From positions 76,922 to 140,921 of the forward strand of contig MFJF01000005.1 of NCBI GenBank assembly GCA_001779115.1: a DNA stretch of 64,000 nucleotides. The letters are read 5' to 3'. The position numbers were made by a program, and so were the translations under genes. The notes beneath the pieces were generated by a model. It saw nothing but the letters and a program-made list of their open reading frames with translations. It was not told the DNA's origin and searched no databases. Position 1 is the stretch's first letter. The number at the start of each line of letters is the position of its first letter. Origin of the DNA: Candidatus Gottesmanbacteria bacterium RIFCSPHIGHO2_01_FULL_40_15 (GTDB taxonomy: Bacteria > Patescibacteriota > Microgenomatia > 2-02-FULL-39-11). Shown piece by piece: positions 3,401-14,435 of this stretch.

Positions 3401-3859
3401 GGGAGAACGGACTATCTGATTAACAATACAACGTTCAACTCCGTTTATAATAAATGTGCCGTTCTCGGTCATTGAGGGAATATCACCTAAAAAAACATCC
3501 TGATGGATTTCTTTACCGGTCTGTTTATTCAAAAGAACTGTTTCAGCTTTAAGGGGTGAATCGTAAGTAAGACCTTTTTCAAGACATTCGCTTGGAGTAT
3601 AGCGAGGACTTTCAAAATAATGCTTACCAATTGTCAGGCTCCAATTTTTCCCGGTAAAATCTTCAACAGGAGAAATTTCTTTTAACAATTCTTCTATACC
3701 CTGATTTATAAACCAATCATATGAATTTTTTTGTACCTCAGTAAGATCGAGAATAGGAAGTATATCCGCTTTTTTACCCCAATTTTGTCTTTTGGGGTTC
3801 ATTTTTTGGGAATTACTTTTAGTTTTTGGCATTGGGAATAAAGAAGACAAAAACAACAA
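461..3859 (-). CDS. rpoB: DNA-directed RNA polymerase subunit beta
   Basis: The 1132-aa ORF carries conserved beta-subunit blocks (GDKLAGRHGNKGV, NLGQLLE, the rifampicin-cluster region) and sits directly upstream of rpoC. The true start could be the internal ATG at 3802 or 3832, and no clear SD is present at any candidate. Confidence 0.95.
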   Translation of the reverse strand: MLFLSSLFPMPKTKSNSQKMNPKRQNWGKKADILPILDLTEVQKNSYDWFINQGIEELLKEISPVEDFTGKNWSLTIGKHYFESPRYTPSECLEKGLTYDSPLKAETVLLNKQTGKEIHQDVFLGDIPSMTENGTFIINGVERCIVNQIVRSPGVYFTGDSDPTTGKILYVAEVRPLFGSWLDFSISKNDVLLVRIDRRRKYAATTFLRAMGISSDEELFNIFKEVDKDKDYLSNTLLKDPTKSQEEAVIEIYRKMRPGEPTVLDNAQDLFRNLFFNTRRYNLGSVGRYKINKKLKIANIENIPENWILTKEDIIGIIKYLIGLTNNIGTIDDIDHLGNRRIRRVGELVANNAFKIGLMRLERSIKERMSLAQTQMDITPSQIVNARPIIATINDFFRTSQLSTILDQTNPLSEIDNLRRLTVMGVGGISRERASFSIRDINSSQYSRICPVRSPEGPNIGLVTYMALYARVNEYGFLEAPYREVNFDEKTKKPKISDHIVYLTADDEQDFYITHSGVPIDDKGYITAERLPARYRGDFLETDAKNIRYIDVIPRQVVGTAASLIPFIAHDEANRALMGTHMQCQAVPLIKPSSPIVGTGMEEIIPQALKRVVKAPVDGKITYVDAVKLVLKESNGKEHTFQIEKFNRTSQNTCFSQNPLVSLGDSVKKNQSIIDGPACDFGELALGQNLIIAYASYDGMGYEDAIVISDRLVKEDIFTSITIEEYDTEVVDTKLGPEETTRDIPNVGEESLANLDDKGIVIVGAEVGPNDILVGKIAPKGETELTAEERLLRAIFGEKAREVRDTSLRMPHGEKGVVTDVKILDREKGDELHPGTIKKIIVKVAQVRKVVVGDKLAGRHGNKGVISKIVPQSDMPYLEDGTPVDVIISPLSVLSRMNLGQLLEAHLGWAANHANYKVSVPVFETIKEDKIIEEFKKYNLPVDGKTILFDGRTGEPYKETVVVGIAYIMKLIHMVEDKTHARSTGPYSLVTQQPLGGKAQMGGQRLGEMEVWALEAHRAAHTLQEMLTIKSDDVVGRARAFEAIVKGTDIPASTIPESFKVLVKELQALGLNVMPTGTVTFTKKQAPPSDVTEASEIVEAKLLAKAAGEEIVEDKSGKSEEVVKNEQLQQEE

Positions 3860-3911
3860 AATAAGCGTACTCCGGCAGACGTACGCCTCTAATTCTTCTT
3901 CAAGTATGATT

Positions 3912-3939
3912 ATTTTATCATCGGTTTAAATATTGTCAA
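3912..3939 (-). promoter_or_regulatory. sigma70-like promoter for rpoBC
   Basis: On the minus strand the sequence reads TTGACA, a 16-nt spacer, then TAAAAT. It lies about 50 nt upstream of the rpoB ORF start. Confidence 0.4.
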
Positions 3940-4010
3940 GAGGCAAGAGGTAAATATTTGCAGATAATTAATTATTATGATAAAATAGCGGCAAGTTAAG
4001 AAAGTTTCAG

Positions 4011-4040
4011 TTGGTGGGAATTACCCACCAATTTTTATAT
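4011..4040 (+). promoter_or_regulatory. leader hairpin plus T-tract (candidate attenuator) upstream of nusA
   Basis: TTGGTGGG-aatta-CCCACCAA forms a perfect 8-bp stem (4011-4031) followed by TTTTTATAT. It lies downstream of an extended -10 (TGaTAAAAT, 3978-3986) and immediately before the nusA ATG at 4047. The ORF-track TTG start at 4011 falls inside the stem. Confidence 0.4.
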
Positions 4041-4046
4041 AAAAAT

Positions 4047-5171
4047 ATGCCGGCGACAGTCAGAAGTGAATTTGCATTAGCATTAAATCAAGTAGCAACG
4101 GAAAGGGGCATTGATCCTGATGTGGTTTTAGAAACTATCAAAGCGGCAATCCTGGCAGCTTACCGGAAGGACTACGGAACAGAGGAGTTGGAAGAAATTG
4201 AAATAACCATTAATCCCAAAACAGGAGAAGCAATAGTTATTAAAGATAAAAAAAATATTACACCGGCCGGATTCGGCAGAATTGCAGCACAAACCGCAAA
4301 ACAGGTAATACTGCAGAGAATAAGAGAAGCTGAAAAAAAGGCGATTATTTCAGATTATTCCACCCGGATAGGCACAACAATAAACGGTATGGTTTTAAGA
4401 TTTGACGGTCCAAATGTAATTATAGATATTGGAAAAACAGAAGGCGTGATGCCTCCACAAGAACAAATTCCAAACGAGAGATACCGCTTAAATCAGAGAC
4501 TGACATTTTATATAGAATCCATAAAACAAACAATGCGCGGAAATGAAATCATTGTTTCACGCGCTCATAAAGGACTTGTTTCTGCCCTTTTTAAAAGAGA
4601 AGTGCCTGAAGTAAACAACGGAGCTGTTGTAGTCAAAGAGATAGCCAGAGAACCGGGTAATAGAACTAAAATTGCCGTCGCTTCAACTCAATCCGGTGTT
4701 GATCCGGTCGGCAGCTGTGTCGGACAAAAAGGTGTTCGGGTGCAGGCGGTTATTAATGAATTAGGCGGACTGGAAAAAATAGATATTATTCAGTGGCATG
4801 ATGACCCGAAGATTTTTATTCCGGCAGCACTTTCACCGGCAAAAGATATTGAAACAATCATTAATGAGAAAAAAAGGACTGCCATTGCTTATATTCCTGA
4901 TGACCAATTGTCACTGGCAATAGGAAAAGACGGCCAAAATGTACGTTTATCAGCAAAGCTTACCGGGTACAAAATAGATATAAAATCCAAATCAGAAGAA
5001 GGAAAAAAAGCTGATGAATTAAAAAGTGATAAAACAGCAGTTGCTGCAGATATTGAAAAAAAAGCTAAAAAAACTGTCAAGAAAAAAATTAGCGAGAAAA
5101 AAGACGCTAAAGAAAAAAAAGAGATAAAAAAAACTGAACCTAAAAAATCAAATAACACTAAAAGCCTTTAA
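4047..5171 (+). CDS. nusA: transcription termination/antitermination factor NusA
   Basis: N-terminal NusA domain, S1 and two KH regions (GSCVGQKGVRVQAV). There is also a lysine-rich C-terminal tail. Start is assigned to the ATG at 4047; the alternative is the TTG at 4011. Confidence 0.9.
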   Translation: MPATVRSEFALALNQVATERGIDPDVVLETIKAAILAAYRKDYGTEELEEIEITINPKTGEAIVIKDKKNITPAGFGRIAAQTAKQVILQRIREAEKKAIISDYSTRIGTTINGMVLRFDGPNVIIDIGKTEGVMPPQEQIPNERYRLNQRLTFYIESIKQTMRGNEIIVSRAHKGLVSALFKREVPEVNNGAVVVKEIAREPGNRTKIAVASTQSGVDPVGSCVGQKGVRVQAVINELGGLEKIDIIQWHDDPKIFIPAALSPAKDIETIINEKKRTAIAYIPDDQLSLAIGKDGQNVRLSAKLTGYKIDIKSKSEEGKKADELKSDKTAVAADIEKKAKKTVKKKISEKKDAKEKKEIKKTEPKKSNNTKSL

Positions 5172-5210
5172 AGTGAAGAAATATATATTATTTTTTCGAA
5201 AAGCTGATGT

Positions 5211-6710
5211 ATGGCAAAAAAAAATACTAATGAAATTAATGAAGCAAAAATTTCCATCCGTCCCCCTATTGTATCGGTTCTCGGACATGTAGATCACGGT
5301 AAGACAAGTCTCCTGGACCGAATCCGAAAAACCAATCTTGTTGTTCACGAGCACGGCGGTATAACACAACACATAGGAGCGTATCAAATTGAAGTTCCTC
5401 AAAATATTAAACTAAAAAATTCTGAATTTGCCCAAAAAATTACATTCATAGATACACCCGGTCATCATGCTTTTGCCAAAATGAGAAGCCAGGGGGCAAA
5501 TGCTTCCGATATTGCCATTCTCGTTATAGCCGCAAATGACGGAATAAAACCACAAACTTCAGAATCAATTGAACATATTAAAAATTCCGGCATCCCGACA
5601 ATTATCGCACTAAACAAAATTGATTTACCCGACATAAATATTGAAAAAATTAAAAAACAATTAAATAAGGAGGGCGTGAAATTGGAGCAATACGGCGGTG
5701 ACATCCCTCTGGTTCCGGTATCGGCAAAAACAGGTGAAGGAATGGATAAGTTATTGGAGACAATTCTTTTTTTAACTGATTTTTTTCAGATCAGATCTTT
5801 TTTGAACAAACCTTTTCAGGGAGTTGTCATTGAATCAAGCATTTCAAAATATAAGGGAATTACCGGTAGTGTAATTGTCAGAAACGGTGTTTTAAACGTA
5901 GGTGATGATATTGTTTATGATAATCAGATCTTCAGGGTAAGAGCGATTAATGACTGGCAAGGCAGATCTTTAAATAACTTGGGTCCAGGTGATCCGGGAG
6001 AAATTATAGGTTGGAAAACACTGCCTTCTGTCGGAACAATTCTCTACAAGAAAAATGAAACCGAAGTTATCGGACAACCAAAAACCGAAATTGAAAAAGT
6101 TAAGCCCGCTTCAATTATTCAAAGTCCACCGGTTGAAATTGAAACACAAAAAATCAATTTAATTATAAAAGCAGATACAGTCGGAACTTTAGAAGCCATT
6201 ACCCTTGGGCTTCCGGATGATATTGATCTTATCCTGAAGGGAGTCGGCCCGGTTAATGAATCGGATATTCTTCTGGGAAAAACGGTGAAAGCACTGGTAA
6301 TTGGATTCAATGTCCCTATATCGGATCAAGTAAAAAAATTAGCCCAGTCCGAAAAAGTACTCATAAAAAAATATGAAATTATTTATCAGCTTTTTGATGA
6401 AATCAAAGATGTTGTTGAAGCTATAAAAAAAGGTGATTTGGTGGATATTCTCGGAATTGCAAAAGTACTGGCTACTTTTGATATTAAAGGAGTTACGATT
6501 ATCGGAGCAAAAATTGTTTCCGGCAGGATGGCCAAAGGTGATCAGGTAAAAATATTAAGGGATGATAATGAAATAGGCCGCCGTAAAATAAAATCTCTAA
6601 AACATTTTAAGGAAGATATTACCAAGGCTGAACAGGGAAAGGAAGTAGGAATCGGATTATCAGACAGAATTGAACTATTGACAGGTGATAGTATAATAGC
6701 TATAGGCTAA
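5211..6710 (+). CDS. infB: translation initiation factor IF-2 (short form lacking N-terminal domains)
   Basis: Starts almost at the G domain (VLGHVDHGKTSLLD, DTPGH, NKID). The C-terminal beta-barrel domains are present. At 499 aa it is far shorter than the roughly 700-900 aa typical of IF-2. Confidence 0.9.
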   Translation: MAKKNTNEINEAKISIRPPIVSVLGHVDHGKTSLLDRIRKTNLVVHEHGGITQHIGAYQIEVPQNIKLKNSEFAQKITFIDTPGHHAFAKMRSQGANASDIAILVIAANDGIKPQTSESIEHIKNSGIPTIIALNKIDLPDINIEKIKKQLNKEGVKLEQYGGDIPLVPVSAKTGEGMDKLLETILFLTDFFQIRSFLNKPFQGVVIESSISKYKGITGSVIVRNGVLNVGDDIVYDNQIFRVRAINDWQGRSLNNLGPGDPGEIIGWKTLPSVGTILYKKNETEVIGQPKTEIEKVKPASIIQSPPVEIETQKINLIIKADTVGTLEAITLGLPDDIDLILKGVGPVNESDILLGKTVKALVIGFNVPISDQVKKLAQSEKVLIKKYEIIYQLFDEIKDVVEAIKKGDLVDILGIAKVLATFDIKGVTIIGAKIVSGRMAKGDQVKILRDDNEIGRRKIKSLKHFKEDITKAEQGKEVGIGLSDRIELLTGDSIIAIG

Positions 6711-6716
6711 AATCTA

Positions 6717-6739
6717 CCCCAATTGCTTGGGGTTTTTTT
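6717..6739 (+). terminator. intrinsic terminator after infB
   Basis: CCCCAA-ttgc-TTGGGG hairpin followed by TTTTTTT. Confidence 0.5.
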
Positions 6740-6756
6740 AAAAACTTTTATATAAT

Positions 6757-7806
6757 ATGGCGAATATAGATCCGGATAAAGTTAATCAAGCACAAAATAT
6801 ATTGGAAAATGCCCAGTCGATTGCGGTAACCCTGCCGGTTGATCCGAGTGTTGATAAAGTAGCTTCGGCACTATCCCTATATCTTTCACTATCAGCCGCC
6901 GGTAAACAAGTTACAGTTGCCTGTTCTACTCGGATGACAGTTCAATATAATGAACTAATAGGAGTTGATAAGATTTCAACTGTTCTTACCGGTTCATCCG
7001 GCAGAAATCTGGTTATTTCCTTTCCCTATCAGGAAGGATCGATTGAAAAGGTCAGCTACAACATTGAAAACGATAAATTTAACTTAGTCATCGAACCCCG
7101 CGAAGGATTTCCGACAATTACCCAGGAAATGATGAAATACAGCAGTTCAGGCGGAAATATTGACGCAATAGTAACGGTCGGGTGTTCACAGCTTGAGGAA
7201 TTGGGGAATCTTTATTCAAATAACCAGGATTTGTATAACGGAAAACAAATAATTAATCTGGATAATGCATCCAATAATAACAATTTCGCCAAAATCAATA
7301 TTGTAGATACTTCGGCAATATCAATTTCGGAACTTATGAATGATTTTATTAACCAGTTAGGGTTGAATATGGAACCGGATATTGCCACAAATTTACTGGC
7401 AGGGCTGACGAGTGCCACCGATAATTTTTCATCAGGTGAGGTGACAGCCTCAACTTTTGAAACAGCGGCTAATCTATTAAAACAGGGGGCCAGGAAAAAA
7501 CAAATCAGAAAAAGTTCACAGGCATTTGTGCCCCAAATGAAACAACCGGCTGCACCAACCGCACCAATAGCCAAAAGCCAAAAAACACCGTTCGGACTAA
7601 AAACATCCCCAACCCCACAAACAGATCAATCGCAACAGTCAGGACAGCGCGGAAAATTTCAACCGCCACAATTTCAGAGAACCCAACAACAACCCGGATC
7701 AGACTTTCAACAGCAAAAACCTCCGGTAAGAGAAGCAGGTAAATCTCCGGAAACACCACCGGACTGGTTAAAACCGAAAATATATAAAGGATCAACCCTG
7801 ATTTAA
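6757..7806 (+). CDS. DHH-family (NrnA-like) protein with catalytic motifs replaced; Q/P-rich disordered C-terminal tail
   Basis: Aligns to the NrnA DHH domain, for example IDHHPNEDPYGDLLWVDTSASSVSEMIYEL versus LDNASNNNNFAKINIVDTSAISISELMNDFI. The catalytic motifs are substituted: DHH becomes DNA, DPDAYGS becomes DPSVDKVAS, and GDTGRF becomes SATDNF. No DHHA1/GGGH domain is present; instead there is a roughly 110-aa Gln/Pro-rich tail. Confidence 0.55.
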   Translation: MANIDPDKVNQAQNILENAQSIAVTLPVDPSVDKVASALSLYLSLSAAGKQVTVACSTRMTVQYNELIGVDKISTVLTGSSGRNLVISFPYQEGSIEKVSYNIENDKFNLVIEPREGFPTITQEMMKYSSSGGNIDAIVTVGCSQLEELGNLYSNNQDLYNGKQIINLDNASNNNNFAKINIVDTSAISISELMNDFINQLGLNMEPDIATNLLAGLTSATDNFSSGEVTASTFETAANLLKQGARKKQIRKSSQAFVPQMKQPAAPTAPIAKSQKTPFGLKTSPTPQTDQSQQSGQRGKFQPPQFQRTQQQPGSDFQQQKPPVREAGKSPETPPDWLKPKIYKGSTLI

Positions 7807-7857
7807 CCCAAAAAGAGAGATACCACAGATTTTTGAAATTCCGAAATTTTTTCTCCG

Positions 7858-7886
7858 TTGAGATTTCATTAACAATAAGTTATAAT
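7858..7886 (+). promoter_or_regulatory. sigma70-like promoter for rpsO-pnp
   Basis: TTGAGA, a 17-nt spacer, then TATAAT. The 5'UTR hairpin TCCGCC-ggataag-GGCGGA (7916-7934) lies about 14 nt before the rpsO ATG. Confidence 0.45.
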
Positions 7887-7947
7887 AAGATTATCAGTAT
7901 AAGATTTATTCTTCTTCCGCCGGATAAGGGCGGATTGAATTTTATTT

Positions 7948-8217
7948 ATGGCGTTGGATCCTAATAACAAGAAAAAAATAATTACCGAGTATGCTACAAA
8001 AAAAGGTGATACAGGCAGTCCTGAGGTTCAAATCGCCTTATTAACCCACAAAATTGATAAACTTGTCGGACATTTAAAAGGTAATCCGAAAGATAACCAC
8101 TCCAGAAGGGGCTTATTGGGAATGATATCCAAAAGAAGAAGACTGATTAATTATTTATCCAATAAAAATAAAGACAGGTATAAGGAGATTGTCGATAAAC
8201 TGAAATTAAGCAAGTAA
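7948..8217 (+). CDS. rpsO: 30S ribosomal protein S15
   Basis: 89-aa protein with a full-length match to S15 ([14 protein letters not shown]...[16 protein letters not shown]). Confidence 0.95.
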
Positions 8218-8250
8218 AGATTCTTTCAATTCTGTGGAAAAAAGATCCTC

Positions 8251-10410
8251 ATGAAAAAAATTGTTAGCAAATCAACTGAAATCGGCGGACGGACTATAAC
8301 ATTAGAAGTCGGAAGATTCGCCGAACAGGCGACATCGGCAGTACTGGCACGGTTTGGAGACACCATGGTGATTGCGACAGTGGTGGCCTCTCCCAAAATA
8401 TCAAAACTGGATTATTTTCCATTAACTGTTGAATATGTGGAAAGGCTTTATGCAGGAGGAAGAATTAAGGGAAGCCGCTGGGTCAAGAGGGAAGGAAGAC
8501 CAAGCGACGATGCCATCCTGAAAGCACGACTTATAGACCGTTCAATAAGGCCATTATTTAACCAGAATTATAAGCATGATATCCAGATAATTATTACAGT
8601 ACTTTCAGTTGACGGGGAAAATGAACCTGATATTTTGGGAATTATTGCCACCAGTGCCGCTTTGGCAATATCCCCTATTCCCTGGAACGGACCCATCGGT
8701 TCGGTACGGGTCGGATATGTTCCTTCTCCCAACGGTGAAAGCGGTTTTTTCCTGAATCCGGGGCTTAAAGAACTCGCCTTTTCGGAGCTTGACCTGGTTG
8801 TTTCGGCGACAAAGGAAAAAGTGATTATGCTGGAAGCAGGAGCCAACCAAATAAAAGAAGAAACTTTCATTTCAGGGATTGCTTTTGCCAGGGAAGAAAC
8901 AAAAAAAATTATTTCATTAATCGATGACCTGGTTAAAGAGGTAGGCCGGGAAAAAATTGAAATCCGCGATAATGAAAAAATAAAGGAAATTAAAAAAATA
9001 ATCAATAAAGAATACAAAAAAGAAATCGGGAACCTGATATTAGCCAGAGTTTCCAAAGAACAGGAAGGAGACGAACTTACCGTATTATCAGACAGTATTG
9101 CACAAGTTTATGCTGAAAAATATGACAGAGGTGATATCGAAAAGGCAATCGATCAATTATTTAAGGAACAAATAAGACAAGATATTCTTAAAAATAAAAA
9201 AAGGGCTGATGGAAGGAAACCGGAGGATATCAGAGAAATTAGCGGGGAAGTAGGTCTATTACCGCGGACTCACGGATCGGCCATGTTCAGAAGGGGCCAA
9301 ACACAGGTGTTGACCGTAGCGACTTTAGGATCTCCTTCACTGGAACAGCTTATTGAAAGTCCTGAAGGGGAAACAGCAAAAAGATATATGCATCATTACA
9401 GCATGCCCCCCTATTCCGTCGGAGAAACCGGAAGAGTCGGCTTTCCGGCCAGAAGAGAGATCGGTCATGGAGCCCTGGCGGAAAGAGCCCTTTTACCTGT
9501 TATACCGCCACAAACTTCTTTTCCATATACCATAAGGCTTGTTTCAGAAGTGATGTCTTCAAACGGATCAACCTCCATGGCTTCTGCCTGCGGATCAACG
9601 CTGGCATTAATGGATGCCGGTGTTCCGATAAAAAATCCGGTGTCGGGAATTGCCATGGGTATGGTTGAGGAAAATAATAAATATGAACTGTTATCCGATA
9701 TTATAGGAATTGAAGATTTTTGCGGGGATATGGATTTTAAAGTGGCCGGAACAGAGGAAGGGATAACAGCAGTGCAACTGGATGTTAAAAATTCAGGATT
9801 AACCGATCAGGTAATCACAGAGTCTATAAAAAAGGCAAAGCAAGGACGGCTTCATATTCTTCAAAATATGCTCACAGTTATTCCCAAATACAGGGAAACA
9901 CTGTCAAAATTTGCCCCAAGAATTTCCGTGATTATAATTCCAAAAGAAAAAATCGGTGAAATAATCGGTCCGGGAGGAAAAATAATCCGGCAAATTATTG
10001 CCGAAACCGGCTGCGATATCAACGTTAACGATGACGGTCAGGTGACAATTGCCGGAATTGATCCGGTAAAAGTGGAAGTCGCCCTCAAATGGATAACCGG
10101 AATTATAAAGGAAGTTGTACCGGAAGAAGTATATCAGGGTTTAGTAAAAAGAATTCTACCGTTTGGAGCATTTGTGGAAATACTGCCCGGGCGTGAAGGA
10201 ATGGTTCACGTATCACAGATGGCGTCAGAATATATTTCCGATCCTTCGGAAGTCGTAAAAATCGGCCAGCAAGTGACAGTCAGAGTTATAGAAATAGATG
10301 ACCAGGGCAGAATTAATTTGTCAATGCTTTTCGGGGAGGATGCCAAGAAAAAAACTGTCAGACCACAAGGTAAAAGGGAACACTTCCAGAAGCGCAGATG
10401 GAATAAATAA
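8251..10410 (+). CDS. pnp: polynucleotide phosphorylase
   Basis: Two RNase PH domains, a KH domain and an S1 domain. The protein is 719 aa. Confidence 0.95.
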   Translation: MKKIVSKSTEIGGRTITLEVGRFAEQATSAVLARFGDTMVIATVVASPKISKLDYFPLTVEYVERLYAGGRIKGSRWVKREGRPSDDAILKARLIDRSIRPLFNQNYKHDIQIIITVLSVDGENEPDILGIIATSAALAISPIPWNGPIGSVRVGYVPSPNGESGFFLNPGLKELAFSELDLVVSATKEKVIMLEAGANQIKEETFISGIAFAREETKKIISLIDDLVKEVGREKIEIRDNEKIKEIKKIINKEYKKEIGNLILARVSKEQEGDELTVLSDSIAQVYAEKYDRGDIEKAIDQLFKEQIRQDILKNKKRADGRKPEDIREISGEVGLLPRTHGSAMFRRGQTQVLTVATLGSPSLEQLIESPEGETAKRYMHHYSMPPYSVGETGRVGFPARREIGHGALAERALLPVIPPQTSFPYTIRLVSEVMSSNGSTSMASACGSTLALMDAGVPIKNPVSGIAMGMVEENNKYELLSDIIGIEDFCGDMDFKVAGTEEGITAVQLDVKNSGLTDQVITESIKKAKQGRLHILQNMLTVIPKYRETLSKFAPRISVIIIPKEKIGEIIGPGGKIIRQIIAETGCDINVNDDGQVTIAGIDPVKVEVALKWITGIIKEVVPEEVYQGLVKRILPFGAFVEILPGREGMVHVSQMASEYISDPSEVVKIGQQVTVRVIEIDDQGRINLSMLFGEDAKKKTVRPQGKREHFQKRRWNK

Positions 10411-11564
10411 TGAAGTTTTCGACTACTTCAATCCACTCCGGCAACAAACCCAATCTTAAAGCAGGCGGCAGCGGTGATGTAATTATCCCTATTCATTTAT
10501 CAACAACTTTTGCCCGGAAAAAAATTGATAATCCTACAGCCGGATATGAATATTCACGGAGCGGAAATCCGACCAGATACGCTCTGGAAAAAAATCTTAC
10601 CAACTTGGAAGAGGGTAAATGGGCGTATGCTTTTTCCTCAGGCTTGTCAGCTATCACTGCAGTTTTATTGACTTTGCAAAAAGGTGATCATGTAGTTTCC
10701 ATTGATGATGTTTACGGCGGAACAAGACGACTATTCAACCAGGTATTTGCAAATTTCGGAATTGAATTCACTTATGGTGATTTTGCAAATAATAATGAAC
10801 TTCGGAGGCATGTTAAAACCAATACAAAATTAATCTGGATAGAATCCCCCACTAATCCTTTACTTAAAATTGTCGACATAGCTTCAGTATGCCAATTTGC
10901 CCGTGAGAAAAATATCATAACTGTTGTCGATAATACATTCGCATCGCCTTATTTCCAACGCCCATTGAAACTGGGAGCGACAATTTCATTGCATTCCATG
11001 ACAAAATACATAGGCGGACATTCAGATGTTATCGCCGGATGTATTATCGGTAATGATAAAATTTTAGGTGAAAAAATAAAATTTATACAGAATGCCGCCG
11101 GAGCCATTCTTTCTCCTTTTGACAGTTTTCAGATATTAAAAGGGATAAAAACACTTTCACTTAGAATGGAGAAACATGAAGAAAATGCCAAAAAAATCGT
11201 AACCTTCCTTTCAAAAAATGATAAGATCAAAAAAATATATTATCCGGGAATTCCAACACATAAAGGAAATAATATTGCCAGAAAACAAATGAGCGGATTT
11301 TCCGGCATGCTATCATTTGAACTTAAGGCATCGCTCCGGTCAACGTTGACTTTTTTAGAAAATCTGAAAATTATTTCCATTGCCGAAAGTTTAGGTGTTG
11401 TTGAATCTTTAATTGAACATCCGGCTTCAATGACTCATGCTTCAATTCCAAGACAAGACAGGGAAAAAATAGGCTTATCGGACGGTTTGATAAGATTATC
11501 TGTCGGAATTGAAGACGCTTATGATCTGATCAGGGATTTAAATCAGGCTTTGAAAATAATCTAA
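10410..11564 (+). CDS. PLP-dependent Cys/Met-metabolism enzyme (cystathionine gamma-synthase/beta-lyase/methionine gamma-lyase family)
   Basis: Trans-sulfuration family signature with the PLP lysine (SMTKYIGGHSDVIAGC). The start ATG overlaps the pnp stop (TAATG). Confidence 0.8.
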   Translation: MKFSTTSIHSGNKPNLKAGGSGDVIIPIHLSTTFARKKIDNPTAGYEYSRSGNPTRYALEKNLTNLEEGKWAYAFSSGLSAITAVLLTLQKGDHVVSIDDVYGGTRRLFNQVFANFGIEFTYGDFANNNELRRHVKTNTKLIWIESPTNPLLKIVDIASVCQFAREKNIITVVDNTFASPYFQRPLKLGATISLHSMTKYIGGHSDVIAGCIIGNDKILGEKIKFIQNAAGAILSPFDSFQILKGIKTLSLRMEKHEENAKKIVTFLSKNDKIKKIYYPGIPTHKGNNIARKQMSGFSGMLSFELKASLRSTLTFLENLKIISIAESLGVVESLIEHPASMTHASIPRQDREKIGLSDGLIRLSVGIEDAYDLIRDLNQALKII

Positions 11565-12725: not shown

Positions 12726-14435
12726 ATGATCAACCCGATAAACAGGAATATCTTTGGCAATCCACAATCTATATTGCGGATTATCCCTTTGGGAGGAATA
12801 GGCAATGTGACGAAAAATTTATATGTTTACGAATACAGAAGCCGGCCTGATAACATTTCGGATATCCTAATTGTTGACTGCGGAGTAGGTTTTCCCGATG
12901 AGGCAATGTACGGAATTGATCTGGTTATTCCGGATATAACTTACTTGCGGGATAAAATAAATAAAATCAGGGGAATTATACTTACCCACGGGCATGAAGA
13001 TCATATAGGAGCGCTTCCTTATATTCTGCCGGTACTAAATGTTCCCGTATACGGAACGTTATTAACTGCCAAACTTGCCGAAGTCAAGTTACAGGACTCC
13101 GGTTTGCAAGTAAAGGTTAATGTAATAAACGAAAATATTCCGCTTAAAATAGGGCCGTTTTCGGTTGAATTTATCCATGTTACCCATTCAATTCCGGATG
13201 CTGCCAATCTTTTCATTAAAACTCCTGTTGGTAATTTTTACCACGGCAGTGATTTTAAATTTGACTGGACACCGATTGACGGCAAAAAAACAGAAGTTGA
13301 CAAAATTGCCAGGGCGGGAAAAGAGGGTATAACCTGTTTATTATCCGATTGCGTCAGGGTGGAAACAGAAGGATATACATTGTCTGAAAAAATAATTGAA
13401 GAAACTCTGGATAAGGAAATCAGGAATTGCCCGGGGAAATTTATATTCACTACCCAATCTTCAAATATTTCAAGAATCCAGCAAGCCATTGACGTCTCAA
13501 TCAGAAATAACAGAAAAATAGTCTTTTTAGGCCGGTCAATTGAAAGAAATGTCGGGGTTGCTTACAGATTAAAATATGTAAATTACAGCGAAATGTTTGT
13601 TGTAAGGGACAAAGATATCAGAAAATATAAAGACTCTGAATTAAGCCTCATTGTCACCGGCAGCCAAGCCCAGCCAAATTCGGCGCTTTCCAGAATTGCC
13701 GAAGGAATCCATAAATTCGTGAGAATTAAAGAAGGTGACGTGGTGGTTTTTTCAGCAGATCCGATTCCCGGATATGAAAATGCAGTTCATACTTTGATTG
13801 ATCTTCTGACGGTAAACGGGGCCAGAGTGGCTTATTCGGAGATACAAGACCAGCTTCATGTGTCCGGACACGGTGCGAGAAATGATTTGGCTTTAATGAT
13901 CGGTTTGACTCAGGCGTCAAATCTTTTACCCATAGGCGGAACCTACCGCCAGATGCGGCATTATTCCCAGATGGCCTTTGATATGGGGTATAAACATAAT
14001 CAGGTACTTTTACCGCTTGAAGGAGAAATTATTGAATTTTCAGCTTCCGGACAAGTTAGAATTGCAGAAAAATTAAGCCTGAAGAATGTAATGATCGACG
14101 GTTTGGGTGTCGGGGATATCGGAAATGTTGTTTTACGGGACAGGCAAACAATGGCCAGCGAAGGAATTGTGATTGTGGTTGTACCTTTGGACAAATCATC
14201 AGGAAGAGTAACTGCTGAGCCGGACATAATTTCCCGGGGATTTATCTATATGAAAGAATCTGTAGATTTAATCGATGAAGCAAAAAAAGTGATAATAAAA
14301 TCCTTAAGACTGAAAAAAGGGAGGATTACTGACTGGCAATTTGTCAGAAAACAGGTGGAAAAAAATCTGGAAGGATTCCTGTTTAAGGAAACACACAGAA
14401 GACCTCTTATTCTTGCCGTAGTAGTTCATGTATGA
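12726..14435 (+). CDS. rnj: ribonuclease J (metallo-beta-lactamase/beta-CASP)
   Basis: HGHEDHIGALPYIL motif, a beta-CASP region and a C-terminal domain. The protein is 569 aa. Confidence 0.9.
   Translation: MINPINRNIFGNPQSILRIIPLGGIGNVTKNLYVYEYRSRPDNISDILIVDCGVGFPDEAMYGIDLVIPDITYLRDKINKIRGIILTHGHEDHIGALPYILPVLNVPVYGTLLTAKLAEVKLQDSGLQVKVNVINENIPLKIGPFSVEFIHVTHSIPDAANLFIKTPVGNFYHGSDFKFDWTPIDGKKTEVDKIARAGKEGITCLLSDCVRVETEGYTLSEKIIEETLDKEIRNCPGKFIFTTQSSNISRIQQAIDVSIRNNRKIVFLGRSIERNVGVAYRLKYVNYSEMFVVRDKDIRKYKDSELSLIVTGSQAQPNSALSRIAEGIHKFVRIKEGDVVVFSADPIPGYENAVHTLIDLLTVNGARVAYSEIQDQLHVSGHGARNDLALMIGLTQASNLLPIGGTYRQMRHYSQMAFDMGYKHNQVLLPLEGEIIEFSASGQVRIAEKLSLKNVMIDGLGVGDIGNVVLRDRQTMASEGIVIVVVPLDKSSGRVTAEPDIISRGFIYMKESVDLIDEAKKVIIKSLRLKKGRITDWQFVRKQVEKNLEGFLFKETHRRPLILAVVVHV

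Follow-up and report, generated by a model that had tools for sequence, protein, structure and literature searches.

A catalytically degenerate NrnA'-like protein with a near-invariant C-terminal peptide, probably a docking adaptor, is encoded downstream of infB in Microgenomatia

We analyzed a stretch of 64,000 nucleotides (the 64-kb window) from contig MFJF01000005.1 of Candidatus Gottesmanbacteria bacterium RIFCSPHIGHO2_01_FULL_40_15 and followed one protein, here called X, that is encoded between infB and rpsO. The gene content of the window is that of a candidate phyla radiation (CPR)/Patescibacteria genome of the Microgenomates group. A first-pass annotation of the same DNA had described X as a catalytically dead NrnA/DHH paralog with a Gln/Pro-rich tail, at the position where infB is commonly followed by rbfA and nrnA. 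We confirmed that the open reading frame (ORF) exists, starts with ATG, and encodes 349 amino acids (aa). It lies in the order nusA-infB-X-rpsO-pnp, which is followed by genes for a pyridoxal phosphate (PLP) enzyme, a Lon-type AAA+ module, and RNase J. The coordinates of these genes and of the parts of X are given in Table 1.

Table 1. Features of the X locus, numbered from the first nucleotide of the window (CDS, coding sequence; pLDDT, predicted local distance difference test)
Feature	Coordinates	Strand	Remarks
nusA	4011-5171	+	mechanically called TTG start
infB (short IF2, 499 aa)	5211-6710	+	Pfam GTP_EFTU, EF-G_D2, IF-2; synteny
Terminator-like hairpin, 7-bp stem with 4 GC pairs, then T run	6716-6733	+	between infB and X
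X CDS, 349 aa, ATG start	6757-7806	+	catalytically degenerate NrnA'-like protein
DHH-fold body, residues 1-250 of X	6757-7506	+	
Insertion, residues 84-131, four strands	7006-7149	+	between beta2 and the motif II strand
P/Q-rich linker, residues 251-333 (22% Q, 16% P)	7507-7755	+	pLDDT 50-62
C-terminal peptide PPDWLKPKIYKGSTLI, residues 334-349	7756-7803	+	family conservation
Promoter-like site TTGAGA-17-TATAAT, sigma-70-like, good	7858-7886	+	upstream of rpsO
GC-rich hairpin, 6-bp stem with 5 GC pairs	7916-7934	+	rpsO leader, 14 nucleotides before the rpsO start
rpsO (S15)	7948-8217	+	synteny
pnp (PNPase)	8251-10410	+	synteny
Cys/Met-metabolism PLP enzyme	10410-11564	+	Pfam E 1e-148
Lon-type AAA+ module, 365 aa	11601-12698	+	Pfam AAA 136-272, Lon_lid 296-348
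RNase J (rnj)	12726-14435	+	downstream of the Lon-type AAA+ gene

We found that the body of X has the alpha/beta fold of a DHH domain, as in the DHH phosphoesterase superfamily. When X was compared as a single sequence with the PDB using phmmer, it matched Mycobacterium smegmatis NrnA' (4ls9) and Rv2837c with an E value of 9e-9. A family profile built from 120 homologues matched TM1595 with an E value of 3e-18 and 4ls9 with one of 7e-16; the similarity to NrnA and DHH proteins claimed in the first-pass annotation is thus significant in a profile search. The profile was much farther from Bacillus subtilis NrnA (E = 5e-6) than from 4ls9, and the nearest known relatives of X are NrnA' (4ls9, Rv2837c), TM1595, and a Deinococcus radiodurans RecJ-like protein. 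The general models scored X weakly. We ran the profile check that had been proposed and found that the Pfam DHH model reached 22.5 bits, below its gathering score of 28.1, and that the NCBIfam NrnA equivalog (NF053633) reached 19.3 bits against a cut-off of 350. The DHHA1 substrate-binding domain is missing, as had been predicted: it gave no Pfam match in X at an E value of ≤10, the residues that follow the body are disordered, and the domain was lacking from every family member examined. We concluded that X is a member of the DHH superfamily by fold and probably not functionally a member of the NrnA family, since it lacks five features that define such enzymes (motifs I to IV and DHHA1).

NrnA homologues form two clades, and the genes of the NrnA' clade (MSMEG_2630 and Rv2837c) are cotranscribed with infB and rbfA; infB, rbfA, and nusA are the neighbors that define this clade (PMC4081065). 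X lies at the infB-(rbfA)-nrnA position, as the first-pass annotation had supposed; of the neighbors that define the clade, nusA and infB are conserved next to X and rbfA is absent. The proximity of X to the NrnA' clade, together with the linkage of this clade to infB and rbfA, points to descent in place from an NrnA' gene, which would be the simplest history. The word paralog is not supported, as we found no second DHH gene in the 64-kb window and X looks like a positional descendant of NrnA'.

To describe the catalytic site, we read the motif columns from the PDB alignments made with the single sequence and with the family profile, and we counted the eight canonical catalytic positions in 290 aligned homologues of X. 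In X itself, the motif I His is replaced by P27 and the first Asp of D-x-D by S31, the motif II Asp is G142, the motif III DHH reads D169-N170-A171, and the motif IV Asp of the GDTG type is A220 (in GLTSATDNF). The replacement of DHH by DNA and the loss of the GDTGRF Asp had both been read correctly before. For the D-x-D site, the earlier reading was right about its degeneracy, but its "DPSVD" register was slightly off and the second Asp is kept, as D33.

The substitutions are shared across the family. The motif I His column holds P, G, or S in 219 of the 290 homologues, and the first Asp column holds S, T, or N in 246. The motif II column is Gly in 204 and Asp in 48. Of the two His residues of DHH, the first is kept in 7 homologues and the second in 69, with a complete DHH in a single one (P0152), and the motif IV Asp is found in none (0/290). 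Two positions behave differently. D33 is kept in 289 of 290 homologues and was the only universal catalytic position in a sample of three orders, and D169 is kept in 261 and replaced in Woesebacteria-type members. Apart from these two, the canonical positions vary as if unconstrained. Two of the eight canonical residues are kept in 180 of the 290 homologues; the maximum is six, and 15 homologues keep five or six. This is the pattern expected if catalysis had been lost and leftover ancestral residues persisted in some branches. A sequencing error had been named as something that would undo the earlier description. Because the motifs are degenerate family-wide, there is no such error here, and a pseudogene is likewise ruled out by the family-wide degeneracy together with a reading frame that reaches an invariant C-terminal peptide.

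The first-pass annotation, correct as it was on the degenerate site, overlooked the two best conserved elements of X. One of these is an all-beta insertion of about 55 residues that has no counterpart in NrnA. Family profile positions 10 to 77 and 138 to 258 aligned with TM1595 residues 7 to 74 and 81 to 197, and the positions between (78 to 137) were skipped. In the AlphaFold2 (AF2) model of X, DSSP assigned the strands of the insertion to residues 84 to 88, 96 to 104, 107 to 114, and 127 to 131. The AF2 model of P0497, a member with a short linker, has the same four-strand topology, and the confidence is high in both models. The core of the insertion, residues 84 to 116 (NLVISFPYQEGSIEKVSYNIENDKFNLVIEPRE), is better conserved than any other part of the fold, with a mean frequency of the commonest residue of 0.78 versus about 0.5 for the remaining fold. 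The insertion carries several near-invariant charged residues. Its conserved polar residues include E93, E97, K98, E104, E113, and R115, although conservation of E113 and R115 does not extend from one order to another. Pfam searches with the isolated insertion and with the isolated tail gave no match.

The second element lies at the end of the tail. Residues 251 to 349 of X (99 aa; 18% Q and 16% P) are predicted to be disordered, with pLDDT values of 48 to 62, and the C-terminal region of P0497 is likewise disordered in its AF2 model. The composition of the tail is as had been reported; its length is 99 aa and not the roughly 110 aa given before. The description of the tail as mere low complexity did not hold, since it is a variable leash that bears a near-invariant terminal peptide. 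In homologues, the linker ranges from 23 to 230 aa and its sequence is unconserved (mean commonest-residue frequency, 0.20). The C-terminal 16-mer of X is PPDWLKPKIYKGSTLL, and the C-terminal end of the family reads PPDWLKPKIYKGSTL(L/I). Within it, the 12-residue core P-x-DWL-x-PKI-x-KG has a mean commonest-residue frequency of 0.77. In a balanced sample of the three orders, P334, D336, W337, L338, P340, K341, I342, K344, and G345 were each at least 90% conserved. The terminal peptide is the longest run in X conserved at this level (at least 90%) across the three orders, and the only long one.

A relaxed form of the peptide, [DENS]W[LFMYT]xPx[IVLM][YFV], was present in 276 of the 290 homologues, and in 224 of the 290 it ended 6 aa from the C terminus. 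The last residues are often [ST]-x-[LVI]-COOH, and the last four are unconserved outside Gottesmanbacteria. We also scanned 185,579 bacterial and archaeal genomes, one per species, with an exact back-translated DWLKPKIYKG pattern. We found 30 places, versus about 0.01 expected by chance, and all 30 were in Microgenomates-type loci; all 26 readable ORFs that carried the exact peptide encoded homologues of X. No other ORF of the 64-kb window contains the peptide. A relaxed scan of viral contigs returned one match, which has an in-frame stop inside it and was set aside as chance. When the last 35 residues of X were compared with the PDB by phmmer, nothing was found at an E value of ≤10.

In the AF2 monomers, both of long-linker X and of short-linker P0497, the peptide is left undocked (pLDDT, 45 to 57). 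Intramolecular docking of the peptide, which we considered, is thus not predicted in these two members. The undocked peptide is weak evidence for a partner other than X's own body.

X therefore has the architecture of a docking adaptor: a folded domain, a free linker, and a conserved terminal peptide. The same three parts are found in the SSB tip, the FtsZ C-terminal peptide, the SspB XB peptide, and the PNPase-binding peptides of RNase E. In these, as in X, the linker is free in length and sequence and the terminal peptide is near invariant. The X peptide is unrelated in sequence to the peptides of SSB, FtsZ, SspB, and RNase E, so the logic is shared and homology is not.

Members of the NrnA' clade (MSMEG_2630, 4ls9; Rv2837c/CnpB, 5jju) resemble X in sequence, being among its best matches, and in their place downstream of nusA-infB(-rbfA) (PMC4081065). 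In contrast to NrnA', X lacks six of the eight canonical catalytic residues (up to seven are gone in some orders) and lacks the DHHA1/GGGH domain, whereas the beta insertion, the leash, and the terminal peptide are found in X and not in NrnA'. TM1595 of Thermotoga maritima (PDB 5o1u and 5o4z) is an active pApA/dinucleotide phosphodiesterase that, unlike X, has the full motif set and DHHA1. The closest analogue of X in logic is Cdc45, a DHH-fold protein turned scaffold; Cdc45 and the archaeal inactive RecJ/Cdc45 homologues are noncatalytic DHH-fold scaffolds of the CMG helicase. Unlike X, this group belongs to a RecJ-like branch, keeps a DHHA1-like domain, works in DNA replication, and has no terminal docking peptide.

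The family is large. Searches from three distant members each returned about 1,000 clusters at 90% identity, and an exhaustive profile search returned 1,048 clusters at 50% identity with E values of ≤1e-30. The closest homologues of X are named Candidatus Gottesmanbacteria, and among the best 120 to 150 matches listed for the three distant-member searches, only Microgenomatia names were found. The family thus appears to be present throughout the class Microgenomatia. Its members carry public labels such as hypothetical protein, "nanoRNase/pAp phosphatase (c-di-AMP/oligoRNAs hydrolase)," and "exopolyphosphatase-like/RecJ domain protein." The nanoRNase/pAp phosphatase labels, which are often given, are probably wrong for this family. 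We found no dedicated Pfam or NCBIfam model for X, which drew the weak DHH and NrnA matches only, and no description of the family in the literature that we searched. By these measures, X appears to represent a family not previously described.

We found that the neighborhood of X is also conserved. The arrangement nusA-infB-X-(rpsO-pnp) recurs in about 40 loci from Gottesman-, Levy-, Woese-, Shapiro-, and Chisholmbacteria and other Microgenomates. In all of the roughly 37 related Microgenomatia loci in which both genes are readable, infB lies directly upstream of X, and wherever a locus reaches far enough, the order is nusA-infB-X. The genes rpsO and pnp normally follow X, usually with a Lon-lid AAA+ gene and rnj after them. 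Unrelated genes lie between X and rpsO in five loci (L008, L012, L014, L031, and L039), and in L027 rpsO-pnp is not within 5.5 kb of X. The X-rpsO junction is thus a recurrent insertion point and the infB-X junction is not. By sequence appearance, the inserts include a MurD-like ligase with a 461-aa protein, an IspE-like kinase, and a GatB/YqeY-like protein; a further insert, a BNR_4 protein, has a Pfam match.

For comparison, the order in Escherichia coli is rimP-nusA-infB-rbfA-truB-rpsO-pnp. We searched six-frame translations for RbfA, TruB, and RimP with phmmer (--max; E ≤ 1) and found none of them, a negative that covers the 64-kb window and 38 related loci and not the whole genome. The same search rules out that one of these genes hides among the inserts between X and rpsO. 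The earlier statement that rbfA and truB are absent is thus correct for the window and these loci, and for truB this is as far as it reaches. The loss of rbfA from Microgenomatia has already been published (PMC12641178): Dojkabacteria, WWE3, and Microgenomatia lack rbfA, era, and der, and CPR as a whole are almost devoid of rimP and rimM (PMC12641178, PMC6744442).

One further sequence, P0203 (657 aa), is an in-frame fusion of the C-terminal two-thirds of IF2 with an X homologue. Missing from it are roughly the last 20 aa of IF2 and, on the X side, the first 22 aa; it is the only "Rosetta stone" hint that we saw. We treated it as possibly a deletion or assembly artifact, since it is a single sequence truncated at both junction ends.

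The remaining features of the locus concern signals and neighbors. The terminator-like hairpin after infB and the promoter-like site before rpsO that the first-pass annotation had listed are both present. The infB hairpin and the start of X lie too close together to leave space for a promoter (6670 to 6754 was considered), and the promoter-like sites at 6670 to 6697 and 6685 to 6713 fall within the 3' end of infB. Because promoter space is lacking, the hairpin may belong to the 5' leader of X or act as an attenuator instead of a full terminator; a structure of the 5' untranslated region or an attenuator is as likely as a terminator. A TATAAT lies 2 nucleotides upstream of the X ATG, and X has no Shine-Dalgarno sequence. 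The GC-rich hairpin before rpsO sits downstream of the rpsO promoter-like site and may be a leader element through which S15 regulates its own synthesis. Rfam gave no match for it (a scan of positions 3800 to 10500 was empty at E ≤ 1), and the X-rpsO spacer folds no better than shuffled sequences (z score, -0.59).

Upstream, rpoB, on the minus strand, heads the stretch before nusA. A hairpin of 10 bp with a T run after it (4009 to 4047, plus strand) overlaps the called TTG start of nusA, which probably begins instead at an ATG 12 codons further on (MPATVRSEF...). The last 50 aa or so of NusA form a lysine-rich tail. IF2 starts here at its G domain, without an N-terminal region, and its homologues in related loci are 472 to 494 aa long. 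Downstream, the ATG of the PLP enzyme overlaps the pnp stop codon, and this gene is not at that position in the related loci examined. The 365-aa AAA+ protein has no match to the Lon N domain and no S16 protease domain. Genes for proteins of about 350 aa, compared by their AAA and Lon_lid Pfam matches, also lie between pnp and RNase J in Gottesman-, Levy-, and Woesebacteria loci (L003, L034, L035, L038, and L039). The X cluster may thus contain a second case of an enzyme that lacks its catalytic half.

Taken together, these data suggest that X probably descends from the infB/rbfA-linked NrnA' clade, is no longer catalytic, and serves as a tethered docking adaptor. X keeps the DHH fold, but the residues that bind metal and substrate have been lost, as has the DHHA1 domain in its entirety. 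It has gained the conserved four-strand insertion on its DHH body and a variable P/Q-rich leash that carries the near-invariant peptide about 6 residues from the C terminus. We infer the adaptor function from this architecture. In the model, the peptide would bind a partner that is itself highly conserved, and the insertion would let the folded body hold a second partner or self-associate. Such an adaptor would act in translation or RNA turnover, and a role as a scaffold, which the first-pass annotation had also raised, is plausible.

Several partners can be named and roughly weighted. The slight favorite, still a doubtful choice, is IF2 or the 30S subunit, because no link in the cluster is more constant than infB-X, X sits in the rbfA slot, and several 30S maturation factors are lacking in this lineage. 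PNPase, or a degradosome-like assembly of RNase J and PNPase, is second and would be an unlikely partner by the same rough estimate; in RNase E, C-terminal peptides recruit PNPase (PMC2723993, PMC12489471, PMC3964918). The neighboring protease-less Lon-type AAA+ ATPase comes third and is improbable. The remaining weight falls to a partner other than these.

Some observations weigh against the adaptor model or parts of it. X inherited its link to infB from an ancestor that was an enzyme, and so this link need not imply a physical interaction. The folded part of X is acidic (27 D/E versus 16 K/R), which argues against direct binding of rRNA by the body; nothing that we found supports the RNA binding proposed in the first-pass annotation. 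Among the matches listed, the family was not seen in other RbfA-less classes. Finally, D33 is invariant, D169 is widely kept, and a subset of members holds five or six of the eight canonical residues, so some members of the family may retain a reduced metal site.

One alternative, which we consider unlikely, is that X functionally replaces RbfA as a lineage-specific factor for small-subunit maturation or initiation and docks on the 30S subunit or IF2 through its peptide. X does lie between infB and rpsO, in the place of rbfA (and truB) in E. coli, and in mycobacteria the same place holds rbfA-nrnA' (PMC4081065). Microgenomatia have lost rbfA, era, and der in a radiation that is nearly without rimP and rimM (PMC12641178, PMC6744442). 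The infB-X adjacency persists where rpsO-pnp has been displaced (L027 and L039), and a peptide so extremely conserved fits a target on the ribosome. However, the position is inherited from NrnA' and is thus no proof of replacement. X also shows no resemblance to RbfA's KH fold, and it was undetected in WWE3, Dojkabacteria, and Saccharimonadia, which are RbfA-less CPR, in a search that was not exhaustive. The IF2-X protein P0203 would speak for a contact with IF2, but it is a single sequence that lacks the ends of both proteins and may be an artifact.

A further alternative, which we regard as rather less likely still, is that X organizes a degradosome-like assembly independent of RNase E. Its peptide would recruit PNPase, RNase J, or the Lon-type ATPase, and its P/Q-rich leash would confer multivalency or condensate behavior. 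The genes for all three lie downstream of X in most loci, and the end products of these exonucleases are substrates of the ancestral NrnA. There is precedent for the recruitment, as the RNase E proteins of three lineages bind PNPase by unrelated short peptides that end a disordered region (PMC2723993, PMC3964918, PMC3045602). E. coli RNase E residues 1027 to 1039 (DWQRPTFAFEGKG) bear a superficial likeness to DWLKPKIYKG, which is a lead only. We did not accept it as evidence, because this segment is not the mapped PNPase contact: the beta1 motif is at 1048 to 1061 and the beta2 motif at 1005 to 1017, and only 1039 to 1061 is resolved (PMC2723993, PMC12489471). Unrelated genes also split rpsO-pnp from X in several loci, and in L027 the pair is not within 5.5 kb.

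The main rival to a noncatalytic X is that it is still an enzyme, a neofunctionalized hydrolase or phosphatase with a remodeled site. Such a site would draw on D33 and D169 and on the polar residues of the insertion (E93, E97, K98, E104, E113, and R115), and the tail would merely localize X. The retention of D33 and D169, the 15 members with five or six canonical residues, and the several near-invariant charged residues in the insertion are all consistent with this. We nevertheless disfavor it and judge it improbable. The His pair of DHH, the His and first Asp of motif I, and the Asp residues of motifs II and IV vary freely, with the last absent from all 290 homologues. D169 is itself missing in Woesebacteria-type members, and E113 and R115 are unconserved across orders. 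X also lacks DHHA1, which holds the substrate in all NrnA-type enzymes.

There is likewise little probability that the peptide is a degron, for regulated proteolysis or unfolding of X, or a self-binding element that binds the insertion of another X and leads to polymerization: the fixed distance of the peptide from the C terminus, the frequent [ST]-x-[LVI]-COOH end, the fact that no other elements are as conserved as the insertion and the peptide, and the presence of a Lon-type AAA+ gene in the cluster agree with it, but the peptide is undocked in the AF2 models of both long- and short-linker members, the last four residues are unconserved outside Gottesmanbacteria, and a pure degron leaves the conservation of the folded body unexplained.

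The docking-adaptor model thus accounts best for X, and it has a wider form that we put forward as tentative. X may be an unrecognized core component of information processing in Microgenomatia, either as a stand-in of the RbfA/Era/RimP type on IF2 or the 30S subunit or as an RNase E-independent degradosome scaffold. In the latter version, X would be the scaffold for PNPase, RNase J, and the protease-less Lon ATPase, and in either version the invariant DWLxPKIYKG would serve as the docking element.

These findings bear on how CPR genomes are read. Metabolic reconstructions of CPR that count X as NrnA are probably wrong. If the adaptor model is true, X is a bacterial example of a DHH enzyme turned scaffold, parallel to Cdc45. 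How CPR bacteria compensate for lost ribosome-biogenesis factors is an open question (PMC12641178), and X offers a concrete handle on it: a strongly conserved protein, nonenzymatic by sequence, in the usual slot of rbfA within the nusA-infB-rpsO-pnp cluster. Its 12-residue peptide can be synthesized and used as bait, which makes the identification of its partner directly testable.

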